A stretch of 64,000 bases of DNA. Source: Octopus sinensis (taxonomy: Eukaryota). A program made the position numbers and the translations under genes. The stretch covers positions 30,256,001 through 30,320,000 of the forward strand of contig NC_043009.1 in NCBI RefSeq assembly GCF_006345805.1, in the 5' to 3' direction. Of this stretch, positions 7,751-49,237 are shown piece by piece (positions within the stretch are counted from its first letter, which is position 1; every line of letters starts with the position of its first letter). The notes beneath the pieces are model-generated. The model had not been told where the DNA came from. It searched no databases and saw only the letters and a list, made by a program, of their open reading frames with translations.

Positions 7751-8250
7751 GAACCGCTAAGCAACGGGGATGGAAACACTAGCATCAGTTGTCAAACGAT
7801 GGTGGGCGGACAGACACATAAACACATACACACAAATATACATACATACCTACATATATATATATACGATTGGTTTCTTCCAGTATCCATGTATCAAAGG
7901 TCCGAGGCTATAGTAGTCACTTTCCCAAGGCGCCATATAGTGGGACTGAACCCGGAACCATGTGGTTGGGAAACAAGCTTCTTATCTCTTTATTGCCCCC
8001 AAGAAGCTAAACATAGAGGAGACAAACAAGGAAAGACAAAGTGATTAAGTCGATTACATCGACCCCAGTGCGTAACTGGTACTTAATTTATCGACCCCGA
8101 AAGGATGAAAGGCAAAGTTGACCTCGGCGGAATTTGAACTCCGAACATAAAGACAGACGAAATACCGCTAAGCATTTCGCCCGGCGGTGCTAACGCTTCT
8201 GCCAGCTCACCGCCCTGAAACAAGCTTCTTACCACACAGCCACACCTACA
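7751..8250 (-). mobile_element. Octopus-type tRNA-derived SINE (family B, CA-rich body), interrupted by a nested SINE
   Basis: Matches copies at 44810-45375, 49238-49625 and 23150-23545 (GTGGGACTGAACCCGGAACCATGTGGTTGG...CTTACCACACAGCC). Confidence 0.85.
7985..8216 (-). mobile_element. tRNA-derived SINE (family A, OK/MetaSINE-like core), full length, with 15-bp TSD
   Basis: A/B-box head, core GCCTTTCATCCTTTCGGGGTCGATAAATTAAGTACCAG on the minus strand; TSD GAAACAAGCTTCTTA at 7970-7984 and 8217-8231. Confidence 0.9.
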
Positions 8251-17024: not shown

Positions 17025-17392
17025 TTGTTTCATCGACCCCACTGCTTAACTTGACCCCGAGTGGAATGAACGGTAAAATCGATGTCGATAGAATTAGAGC
17101 TAGAAAGTAAAGACGGACGAAAGGCTGGTAACCATTTTGTCCAACGCTATAAAATTTCTGCCAGCTTGCCGCCTCAAATGTTACAATCATTGGTTTGGAA
17201 TATAGTATTTAAATAGAAGAAATATTCTTTTCTATTCTAGGCACAAGGCTCGAATTTTGTGGGGAGGGGCCAGTCGATTTATCGACCCCGAAAGATTGAA
17301 AGGCAAAGTCGATCTCAGCGAAATTTGAACTCAGAGCCTAACGACAGACGAAATACCGACAAGCATTTCGTCCGGCGTGCTAACGTTTCTGT
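17025..17392 (-). mobile_element. Two adjacent family-A SINE copies
   Basis: TCGACCCCGAAAG..GAAAGGCAAAGTCGA..ATTTGAACTCAGA..AAGCATTTCGTCCGGCGTGCTAACG. Confidence 0.8.
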
Positions 17393-29144: not shown

Positions 29145-29355
29145 AATATTTTCTCCTCTAGGCACAAGGCCCGGAATTGTCGATGAGAGGCCAGTCGATT
29201 AGATCGACCCTAGTATGCAAATGGTACTTAATTTATCGACCCCGAAATGACGAAAGGAAAAGTCGACCTCGGCAGAATTAGAACTCAGATCGTAAAGACG
29301 GATGAAATACCGCTAAGCAATAAGCCCAGCGCGCCAACGTTTCTGCTAGCCGTCT
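29145..29355 (-). mobile_element. Family-A SINE
   Basis: GGTACTTAATTTATCGACCCCGAAA..GTCGACCTCGGC..GAACTCAGA..ATACCGCTAAGC. Confidence 0.85.
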
Positions 29356-40933: not shown

Positions 40934-41100
40934 AGTGTGTGTGTGTGTGTATGTAAATGTGATATATGACAATTATTTATATTTATAAATAAATTCCTCT
41001 ATTTACATAATATCGAGGTATCTTTCTTTCTTTTGTTGTCTTACTATTTCTATCAATATATATATATATTCGAAATAAGCAGTATGATATCAAGCAGTAA

Positions 41101-41187
41101 TGCAGTACGACCGTTTCAAGCAGATTCATTTAATTGAACAATGCAATCATTACATCAATGTTAATGCACTGCTATCTTCAGATGCAC
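41101..41187 (-). ncRNA. Type I hammerhead motif with long stem II
   Basis: TGCAT-CTGAAGA-TAGCAG...CTGCTT-GAAA-CGGTCG-TA-CTGCA on the minus strand. Confidence 0.7.
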
Positions 41188-41929
41188 AAATAGTAGGATT
41201 TTTGAAATTAATAGATAATATGTATATCCTTCCGGATATTCATATGAAAGTGCCTTGAAAGATCTTTATAGAAACCACCAAATAATGAAGTCCAAGAATG
41301 GCTATTAAACTGATTCTATATAATATTCCTTGTAATGTTTATAATTGATACATACACACCATTTATCTATTTTGGCTATGATATCATTTTGGAATTCTTA
41401 AATCTTATTTTATACAACGTAACAATATGGCTTATAAACGTTACTCCATCGTACCCCTAATAAATTTTCCCTGTATTAGCATCTTAAATTTCTTAGTGTC
41501 TTGCACCTTTAACTGGTAATTAAAATCATGATTTAAAGTCTAACCCTACGCTGCCTCTTTTGTATAGAGAGTTGCTCCTATCAAATTCACTCTTCCTAAT
41601 GTCGTATTGCCTTTCTCTTGGGGAAAAGAGACACCTATAAAACATTTTACGACTATACCTAGCCATGAGTTGTCAACTCACTTTTGTTCTTAATTTAAAT
41701 TAGATATCGTCTTCTAGTCTCAGATTTAATAGATGATAAAGAGATAAATATATTAGAAGTGAATCACAATCTATGACCCCACTGCTCCATGCGATTCAAA
41801 GGAATTGTAGTCTATTCTTAGCCACTTTACTACAATAGCAAGAACATAGTTTTCTTCCAACTCCTTACTCTGTTAAATTATTTAAGAAAAATTATATTAA
41901 TGTCCTACTTGTTAAAAATTCTATATTTT

Positions 41930-42017
41930 GTGCAGCTGAAGATAGCACTGCATTTAAATTGATGTAATCATTGCATTGTTCAATAAAATGGAGCCACTCG
42001 AAACGGTCGTATGGCAT
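41930..42017 (+). ncRNA. Type I hammerhead motif with long stem II (more degenerate copy)
   Basis: TGCAG-CTGAAGA(41936-41942)...GAAA(42000-42003)-CGGTCG-TA-TGGCA. Confidence 0.62.
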
Positions 42018-42045
42018 CATTACTTGATATCCTGTTACTTATTTC

Positions 42046-42096
<51 letters not shown>

Positions 42097-43280: not shown

Positions 43281-43403
<123 letters not shown>

Positions 43404-43511
43404 GATAGATAGATAAACAACATTTCTTTTTGCAATTTCTATATTTTCAACTGCTTTATATATATGGTGGAAAACGAAACGTTTTCCAGTGTTTTCGGTA
43501 TGACGATATGA

Positions 43512-43965
43512 TATTGTGTCTAAAGCCAGCTAGAGACGACGATCTCTTGGGGCTATAAAGCTACAGAAACACCCCCTCCCCAATGTGGTTAGCCATGATA
43601 AGATGGCTTCTATACTTTATATTATCGAGCGATTACTGTTTCAATCTCATTCTGAGATATAATTATGCTTACTGTTTTCGACATCAGTGGCAGACGCCAC
43701 TAGAAAAACTTATATATTTGCAAAGCAGCCTTCACTTTCATCGCGACCTGGTGGTTACCCGTTGACAAGGGACAAAAATCCCGAAACTAGTTCGAGCGTA
43801 TCACTCAGGCTTGCGAGGAAGGGATGGCCTCCCTTTGCAAATACTCCAAGGTCACTGATATTGTGTCTAAAGCCAGCTAGAGACGAAGACCTCTTGGGGC
43901 TATAAAGCTACAGTAACACCCACTCCCCAATGTGGTTAGCCATGATAAGATGGCTTCTATACTTT
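43512..43965 (+). mobile_element. Retrozyme-like insertion: 347-nt unit with 111-bp terminal redundancy and 9-bp TSD
   Basis: Direct repeats 43509-43619 and 43856-43966 (4 mismatches); ACGATATGA at 43503-43511 and 43966-43974; central HHR. Confidence 0.8.
43741..43816 (+). ncRNA. Type I hammerhead ribozyme, U3:A8 core variant
   Basis: TTGACAA(43762-43768)-GGGA caaaaa TCCC-GAAA(43783-43786)-CTAG-TT^; extended stem I CCCG/CGAG, GTGGT/ATCAC, CCTG/CAGG, TCGCGA/TTGCGA. Confidence 0.75.
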
Positions 43966-44809
43966 ACGATATGAGAATGGTTTGATTGAATTTCGCCATT
44001 ATTCTCTAACCACTTCCTTGCTTTACTCAATCTATCTCCCGAATTCTCTGTCCTCTTCTCTCTGTCTTCCTCCTTCCACCCCTCTTACTTGTCTATGTCT
44101 CCTTGCCAGTCACCCATCCTCCTGCGTTGAACGTGTTATCTCCCCCTCTCTCTGTGTTTCTCCTGCCCTTCGCCCTCCCTCCTGTCTCTTTGCCTGTCAC
44201 CCATCGTCCTGTGTTAAACGCGTTATCTCTCTCTCCATCTCTCCACCCTCCCTTCCCTCTCTGTCCCCTATGCCGCCTTGCGCCTCACCTGTGGTAACAA
44301 AACGTGAAAGTGACAGTCAATATTTGCTGTAGTTATTTGTCTTTGATTAAACAATGTCTCTATGTATCTACTTCTCTTTCGACGTTATAAATCAGTCTTC
44401 TCTGAAAATACTGATAAACATTTAAAAACACAAAACGAATGCCACCTTCCTTTCTGTCAGCGTTCACTGTCTCTCTCACTCTCTCCATTTCTCTCTCACT
44501 TCCTCTACGACCCTCCTCTTTCTCTCGCTTTACCACTCACTTCAACTATACCTCCTCTACTTAACACCTTTCACCCAATAAGTTACGCATCTCCTTCGCT
44601 ATCCTTCATTTTGTGTGCTGGTGCCACGGAAAATATTCCTATACTGTGACACTTATAGAATATAGAAAGAAGTGTAAAACCGATAATTATATAATTCACC
44701 CGAAATATCTCAGTTACGCAAACGTAAACAGAATTACTATTTAGCCTTAAAATACATCGTACATATTCAAAGAAACTTCTTGGAGTTGTGTTATGGACCG
44801 TTCTTCTGG

Positions 44810-45375
44810 TATTCTTTTATTCTTTTACTTGTTTCAGTCTTTTGATTGTGACCATGCTGGAGTCGATGAAATTGACACCTCGACTTATCTCCTGTAAGCC
44901 TGATGTTTATTCTATCGATTATTGCTGCCGAACCGTTAAGTTACGTGGATGCAAACACACCAACATTTGTTGTCAAGCGATGGTGGTGGGTAAGGGAACA
45001 AATTCAAGCACAAACACACACACATAAATACACACTTATATACATATAGGCGGCGAGCTGGTAGAAACGTTAGCACGCCGGGCGAAATTCGTAGCAGTAT
45101 TTCGTCTGTCGTTACGTTCCGAGTTCAAATTCCGCCGAGGTCGACTTTGCCTTTCATCCTTTCGGGGTCGATAAATTAAGTACCAGTTTCGCACTGGGGT
45201 CGATGTAATCGACTTAATTCCTTTGTCTGTCCTTGTTTGTCCCCACTACGTTTAGCCCGTTGTGGGTAGTAAAGAAATATATATATATACATATACGACG
45301 GACTTGTTTTAGTTTCCGTCTACCAAATCCACTCACACGGCTTTGATCGGCCCTAAGACTAAAGCAGAAGACACT
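44810..45375 (-). mobile_element. Family-B SINE interrupted by a family-A SINE
   Basis: Tail TTCTTTTACTTGTTTCAGTC..CATGCTGGAG; GTTTCCGTCTACCAAATCCACTCAC. Confidence 0.85.
45049..45277 (+). mobile_element. Full-length family-A SINE
   Basis: GGCGGCGAGCTGGTAGAAACGTTAGC..GAGTTCAAATTCCGCC..GCCTTTCATCCTTTCGGGGTCGATAAATTAAGTACCAG; flanked by TATATACATATA on both sides. Confidence 0.92.
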
Positions 45376-48870: not shown

Positions 48871-49237
48871 TTTTACTTGAGTGTTTGAGGTATAAAAATA
48901 ATGCACTTGGCAGGTTTATCTTCTTTTAAATAATATATGACTAATGAAATGTTAATTATAATATGCGTTTGCAATAAATGCAATAAATACAAACATATTT
49001 TATACTTTATTAAATAACAACAAATCATAACGAGTTACAATGAGAAATTTCGAGGCACTAAAACGATATGAAAGAAAAAGTTTCTATTAAGTTTATTTTA
49101 TAACAAAGAATTATCGGGAGGATAAGATGCAAGCAGAGCGAAGTGCTTTCCCGAATCTCAATAAATATTTTCATCTAAAAGAAATAAATGGCAATTGGCC
49201 CAAATACACCAAACATTTTAAACATCATGGATTAAGC

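Follow-up and report, generated by a model that had tools for sequence, protein, structure and literature searches.

A U3:A8 hammerhead in a non-coding retrozyme repeat probably mobilised by Penelope elements in an animal genome

Introduction

Metazoan non-LTR retrozymes are non-coding repeats with units of 350-390 nt in mussel and 330-350 nt in axolotl (PMC7229834; 10.64898/2026.07.22.740005). They are described with a canonical type I hammerhead, a weak palindromic stem III, a self-paired circular fold and co-existing Penelope-type elements (PLEs) (PMC7229834). The repeat reported here, family A, has these features and a non-coding unit of 357 nt. Unlike those retrozymes, it occurs mostly as dispersed copies of 0.6-1.8 units with inverted 5' parts rather than as long tandems, its core is U3:A8 or U3·G8, and it is known here from sequence alone.

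The swap of the hammerhead 3-8 pair to U3:A8 is already published (PMC3088659; PMC4209133). U3-A8 hammerheads have been described from nature (Perreault et al., 2011; PMC3088659), and the minimal hammerheads of the Schistosoma PLE Cercyon have U3:A8 in about 1,300 motifs (PMC4209133). Family A carries the same compensatory swap and is likewise missed by CUGANGA descriptors; it differs in that the swap lies in a retrozyme hammerhead of canonical size and appears to be ancestral there, with a later relaxation to U·G. A natural UUGACGA core is described in a halovirus variant with a 2-nt insertion (PMC7151607). A literature search largely confined to open-access main texts found no U3·G8 retrozyme families, though such cores may already be listed in print.

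PLE insertion involves two internal reverse transcription starts that bound a tail (PMC11167929), and PLE insertions include inverted 5' copies (PMC8557442). An anole PLE still inserts normally in vitro when its hammerhead has been inactivated by mutation, and its chief template is unprocessed RNA (PMC11167929). Family A insertions resemble those of PLEs in their two fixed 3' ends with a short tail, 5' truncation, inverted 5' copy and partial tandems. They differ in having no ORF, a tail of ~45 nt compared with 30-40 nt, and no homology to the sampled pLTRs.

Newt satellite 2 is a hammerhead repeat with an internal snRNA-type promoter (Coats et al., 1994, as cited in PMC2220036). Family A may be organised similarly, but its promoter is inferred from one motif and a spacing, in an invertebrate-type genome. 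The LINEs Tx1L, Keno and Tx1-Mar combine an APE endonuclease, RT, zf-RVT and a CCHC ORF1 with a fixed site in another repeat, and they stack in tandem around the duplicated target (PMC4494074; PMC4640811). A LINE that interrupts other copies of family A is alike in all of these respects; its target is the hammerhead retrozyme and the U2 +1 region, whereas Keno inserts at U2 nucleotide 39. In a literature search largely confined to open-access papers, no LINE targeting a hammerhead repeat came up.

Results

The window (the whole stretch of 64,000 nt that was analysed) comes from an animal genome of 2.7 Gb that is rich in microsatellites. It contains one family A insertion with the following features.

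43503..43511, + strand: candidate target-site duplication ACGATATGA, left copy, 9 bp, overlapping the first bases of the insertion
43509..43967, + strand: whole insertion, 459 bp, about 1.3 units of the 357-nt non-coding retrozyme family A repeat (BLAST against family copies)
43509..43619, + strand: terminal redundancy, first copy; the second copy is 43856-43966 (96.4% over 111 bp)
43683..43688, + strand: ATCAGT motif 57 nt before ATCG, putative proximal promoter element of snRNA type
43736..43753, + strand: 18-nt site duplicated by a presumed Tx1-like LINE in other copies, empty in the window copy
43740..43743, + strand: ATCG, putative transcription start, equivalent to U2 snRNA +1
43751..43761, + strand: stem I 5' arm, with distal GUGGU, internal-loop UAC and the CCG left of the 6-nt proximal arm (private 3-nt deletion)
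43762..43768, + strand: core strand U3 U4 G5 A6 C7 A8 A9 (U3 = 43762, A8 = 43767)
43769..43782, + strand: stem II GGGA-CAAAAA-UCCC, with two-sided changes between families in 3 of its 4 pairs
43783..43792, + strand: GAAA (43783-43786), palindromic stem III ACUAGU (43786-43791) and U17, predicted cut after 43792
43793..43804, + strand: stem I 3' arm, with CGAGCG, loop U and distal AUCAC
43966..43974, + strand: candidate target-site duplication ACGATATGA, right copy

End mapping places the 3' end of the insertion at the commoner of the fixed ends of family A. The candidate duplication ACGATATGA has one more chance occurrence in the window, at 49063.

The hammerhead fold in the window is a real motif. 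From 43751 on, the site reads GTGGT TAC CCG TTGACAA GGGA CAAAAA TCCC GAAA CTAGT T CGAGCG T ATCAC. It contains the elements that the preliminary description had listed, namely the core UUGACAA with U3 and A8, stem II GGGA/TCCC with its CAAAAA loop, the stem III palindrome ACTAGT, and the GUU triplet with its predicted cut after 43792. Three helices surround the core and stem I is open-ended, as in type I hammerheads. The core has G5, A6, A9, G12, A13, A14, A15.1:U16.1 and H17, columns that are invariant in the alignment, and its 3-8 pair is Watson-Crick (U:A). Stems I and II fold in this region with a z of -2.9. A relaxed type I descriptor, suggested earlier as a check, matched this single site in the whole window and gave 1 match in total in 200 dinucleotide shuffles (mean 0.005). 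Rfam returned no match at gathering score across the window and no hammerhead at E<=10 within 43400-44100, which agrees with the expectation that standard searches overlook the site.

Stem I of the window copy is damaged. Three nucleotides are missing from its 5' arm (...TACCGCCCG in the family, ...TACCCG in the window), a loss found only here among 126 copies reaching that far upstream, two others of which lost 1 nt. The placement of an internal loop for a loop-loop contact, once proposed at this site, is therefore a feature of family A, where a UAC/U loop and a 6-bp stem I set loop 1 against loop 2, and not of the window copy. Because of the deletion, the distance from core to internal loop is wrong, and the window copy is likely to be a poor cutter, as predicted from its broken stem I. 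It carries one hammerhead only. Cleavage as a dimer is a plausible prediction, since a stem III of 2 bp, closed by a loop of 2 nt, is unable to form within a monomer.

Family A is a 357-nt repeat without an ORF, with the unit length taken from tandem copies in locus L019. The genome search gave 866 first-look candidates, and the exact core pattern had 312 matches (reversed control, 0). Its fold is a canonical type I hammerhead with a 6-bp stem I (one C-A mismatch), a UAC/U internal loop, a distal GUGGU/AUCAC helix, a stem II of 4 bp capped by a 6-nt loop, and a palindromic stem III of 2 bp. The label of minimal hammerhead given to the site earlier does not apply: stems I and II and both loops are of canonical size, stem II having 4 bp rather than 7-8 and stem I 6 bp where that of minimal PLE hammerheads is short, and there is no extra base between positions 9 and 10.1. 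Its multicopy, non-coding unit, within the range of 150-450 nt, and its single type I hammerhead class the repeat as a non-LTR retrozyme. Folded as a circle, the unit is predicted to pair with itself (z about -4.8 against 60 shuffles). Head-to-tail dimers are present but few (L019, L036), and no PLE ORF was found beside the unit.

Sister families differ from family A at the 3-8 pair. Family B (3,807 candidates) has C3:G8, which also occurs in L267, and family C (1,468 candidates) has U3·G8 with GUC; the candidate sets of the families may overlap. The fold was compared over 20 hand-picked sequences (19 distinct) of four families: 93.8% of cells are paired, as against 24-52% in slid controls, and 6 of the 18 pairs show changes on both sides. 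The 3-8 pair of the 19 distinct sequences is U·G in seven, U:A in six, C:G in five and other in one. The stem III palindrome is kept in sister families as ACUGCAGU, ACUAUAGU and ACUCGAGU. Families ~22-25% apart keep G5, A6, A9, G12-A14, A15.1:U16.1 and the stems intact.

Some details of the relatives were noted in passing. In family B (L101-L130) the core is canonical, but stem II has a C-A mismatch at its base and the internal loop reads UGU. Family C (L170-L199) has a G·U closing pair in stem II and a 3-bp palindromic stem III, and its copies are 96-98% alike. Further relatives have C3·A8 cores (CUGAUAA, CUGACAA) or U3:A8 (UUGAUAA, with a different stem II), including L271:2166-2237.

U3 is near fixed in family A (303 of 312 cores). 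Nine cores have another base, four of them C, and truncation or deletion junctions account for five of the nine. A8 is present in 73 of the 312. Among the first 100 matches listed, every core without A8 has G8, which puts U3·G8 at about 230 of the 312. A suggested check of whether U3:A8 is fixed thus came out positive for position 3 and negative for position 8. In a LINE-anchored sample chosen regardless of core, 18 of 18 were U3·G8. Both A8 and G8 letters occur among eight sequencing runs (contigs only, five of the runs presumed to be RNA), with G8 at larger depth. At position 17, C was found in 55 of 67 U3:A8 copies and U in 73 of 74 U3·G8 copies, in a sample enriched for A8 by the choice of loci.

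Two trees give a ladder in which U3:A8/GUC copies are basal, U3:A8/GUU copies come next and U3·G8/GUU copies last. The maximum-likelihood trees were made with positions 3, 7, 8 and 17 masked and the sister families as outgroups. Rows dropped before the trees were eight truncated or misaligned matches, most family B rows, copies with short 3' parts, and locus L067. Supports within the family are low to moderate (0.6-0.93), with 0.82 at the family root. Parsimony puts A at the family A root for position 8, with 8 changes compared with 37-46 for shuffled labels. Terminal branches measure 0.016 (n=50) in the A8 group and 0.010 (n=67) in the G8 group (p=0.001), and U3·G8/GUU copies form the youngest and largest group of family A.

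Under the preliminary description, a CUGACGA family consensus with two deaminations in this copy would have told against covariation. CUGACGA as the consensus is ruled out by C3 in 4 of 312 cores, and CpG deamination as the source of A8 is ruled out by the absence of a CpG excess (10 of 757 CpG sites changed, compared with 61 of 5438 other C/G sites). Together with a consensus other than C3:G8 and an A8 reconstructed as ancestral, this supports inherited covariation, and not decay by deamination, as the origin of U3:A8 here. The wobble U·G core amplified twice, in the young branch of family A and independently in family C with GUC kept, which is less expected than U3:A8.

Copy ends bear on how the repeat spreads. 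Positions were counted from the putative start in 151 copies found by the core pattern, a set enriched for A8. The 3' ends of 117 of them fall in two peaks ~45 nt apart, 70 at +233-238 (72 counting all when this peak is widened to +231-238) and 47 at +277-284. The 5' ends are spread evenly, 111 of the 151 copies reach upstream of the putative start, and there is no pile-up of 5' ends at that start. Nor was there a 5'-end pile-up at the cut site among 24 upstream units at LINE 5' ends. Both orientations occur in 53 of 130 loci. Fixed 3' ends with an optional tail, 5' truncation and an inverted 5' copy are the marks of PLE mobilisation. Copies that extend across the cut site as well as the start would require a template that is either circular or an uncut multimer.

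Intact 780-aa RT+GIY-YIG ORFs are present in the genome. No pLTR homologous to the unit was found in 30 GIY-YIG loci or 8 extended PLE loci (5,029 candidates in total), and no PLE ORF was flanked on both sides by the unit in the loci examined. As a separate observation, a minimal hammerhead-like U3:A8 motif (UUGAUAA, CAUG palindrome) lies some hundreds of bases past the ORF in an abundant Penelope family whose 780-aa ORFs are intact. The UUGAUAA minimal motif occurs in 15 of the 30 GIY-YIG loci (L234-L259), plus L264:4163, and its stem I is weak and A/U-rich.

The ATCAGT hexamer lies 57-61 nt upstream of U2 +1 in 24 of 30 U2 loci. Its spacing to ATCG is again 57-61 nt in 81 of 110 family A, 11 of 16 family B and 11 of 17 family C sites, counted where upstream sequence is retained (most of the rest being truncated), compared with a background of 0.00036 per base. 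This one hexamer and its spacing suggest a U2-like promoter inside the unit. The U2 genes themselves (L272-L301) have at least two lineages of upstream sequence, both with ATCAGT at -57 to -61.

Other family copies are interrupted by a 4.8-kb LINE (APE endonuclease, RT, zf-RVT and CCHC ORF1) with an 18-nt duplication equivalent to 43736-43753; the window copy is without it. We take the LINE to be Tx1-like, a name that no match carried, and its domains fit an L1/Tx1-type ORF2. Keno as its identity is ruled out by an insertion site other than U2 nucleotide 39. Thirty LINE 3' ends (from 40 matches among 185 candidates) are followed by family A in 19 cases, sister families in four, a duplicated target plus another LINE in five, U2 snRNA in one, and nine target bases then unrelated DNA in one. 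The target motif precedes all 30 LINE 5' ends examined (of 40). The LINE inserts into all three families (A, B and C) as well as into a U2 gene, and it stacks in tandem (including L071-L100 and L200-L229). The LINE copy at a U2 snRNA gene start (L260:1190-1260, L084) bears retrozyme-derived bases at its 5' end, which suggests that its RNA was transcribed from within a retrozyme. Older LINE subfamilies (~80-86% identical) were seen in the older A8 copies L041, L068, L149 and L355, and in L297 another LINE-like 3' end lies directly before U2 +1.

Discussion

The window copy is probably a Penelope-mobilised retrozyme repeat, one of hundreds of copies, with an inherited U3:A8 type I hammerhead whose damaged stem I would make it a poor cutter. 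Intact masters would be transcribed from the U2-like promoter within the unit, with a start near the equivalent of 43740. Two hammerheads in one RNA would pair their palindromic stems III and cut after GUH, and the cut would release a unit-length RNA able to circularise. The Penelope RT/GIY-YIG protein would then start reverse transcription at two internal sites ~45 nt apart. Copying round the circle, or through uncut RNA, would give 5'-truncated, often inverted copies of more than one unit, like the window copy. In the master lineage, the 3-8 pair and triplet would have passed from U:A/GUC through U:A/GUU to U·G/GUU, with C:G or U·G in the sister families.

Deep mutational scanning of a type III hammerhead gave low activity for all changes at positions 3 and 8 but C:G to G:C (PMC9901934), so U:A may be weak, and U·G too. 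The 3-8 pair of family A remains able to pair, yet spread does not require it to be Watson-Crick, in keeping with a slow ribozyme being enough. A slow ribozyme could persist because hammerhead cleavage was dispensable for insertion in vitro in the anole study.

A less likely possibility is that family A can now do without its hammerhead, that the repeat spreads by uncut read-through RNA, and that the changes from A8 to G8 and from GUC to GUU are drift in a dying ribozyme. Its main support is the normal insertion of anole PLE hammerhead mutants, with unprocessed RNA as main template (PMC11167929). The master lineage has gained three weakening changes (the C2.3xA1.3 mismatch, U17 and G8), the cut site is spanned intact in every sampled copy, and lineage changes show no visible deficit within the hammerhead region (3 of 12 differences between old and young copies). 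Loss of function fits poorly, however, with core bases and stems that are intact across families ~22-25% apart. Both core changes are also of a tolerated kind (still pairable; NUH), and family C fixed U3·G8 independently while keeping GUC.

More tentatively, and with less than even confidence, U3·G8 hammerheads, nearly dead by mutagenesis scores, may be working slow cutters that took over two independent and recently amplifying lineages, with slower cutting sparing the Penelope template. The 3-8 pair would then have walked from C:G to U·G, U:A and U·G again, under a U2-type promoter, with a LINE parasite at the start whose RNA is co-transcribed.

The A8 of the window copy was very probably inherited from older family members, judging by its neighbours and its upstream sequence. 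It is unlikely to be a private G-to-A change in a U3·G8 copy, which would make the Watson-Crick pair accidental. Such a change would account for the one derived site (43887) that the window copy shares with G8 subfamilies and for its placement in the tree beside the G8 copies L049 and L060, and three other isolated A8 copies inside G8 clades (L133, L354 and L025) show that G8-to-A8 changes occur sporadically. Against it, the upstream diagnostic sites and the first partial unit have A8-group states: the upstream 60 nt match the A8/GUU group and not the early G8 group. A8/GUU copies form a group of their own of about ten, the nearest neighbour of the window copy (L146) is A8/GUU, and a CpG excess is lacking.

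It is very improbable that the repeat belongs, as terminal repeat (pLTR), to an autonomous element such as a PLE or the Tx1-like LINE: two unit copies do flank the 4.8-kb LINE in L061 (L061:2081-6919) and L062, but the LINE breaks into the unit and duplicates 18 nt of it, is found in families A, B and C and in U2 alike, stacks in tandem and has its end flagged in only 8 of 151 pattern-found copies, while the sampled PLEs carry a different, minimal hammerhead-like motif. For the LINE, the duplication and the mixed targets rule out the unit as its LTR or pLTR.

For the preferred reading of an inherited hammerhead in a Penelope-mobilised repeat, subfamilies in one genome that differ at positions 8 and 17 and little else are ready constructs for asking how much cleavage spread needs. 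That question bears on Penelope-type elements as well, as hammerhead mutants insert normally in vitro. Whole abundant families are missed by CUGANGA descriptors and Rfam. The transcription of a retrozyme is linked here to a putative snRNA-type promoter and to a site-specific LINE.

The repeat search over the whole window was swamped by microsatellites. Two other repeats were seen in it. A dispersed repeat of ~200 bp, probably a SINE, occurs in both orientations at 7983-8186, 17277-17390, 29193-29350 and 45057-45279. The segments 41045-41203 and 41914-42072 form a 159-nt inverted repeat, 82% complementary and 710 nt apart, that is possibly a MITE.
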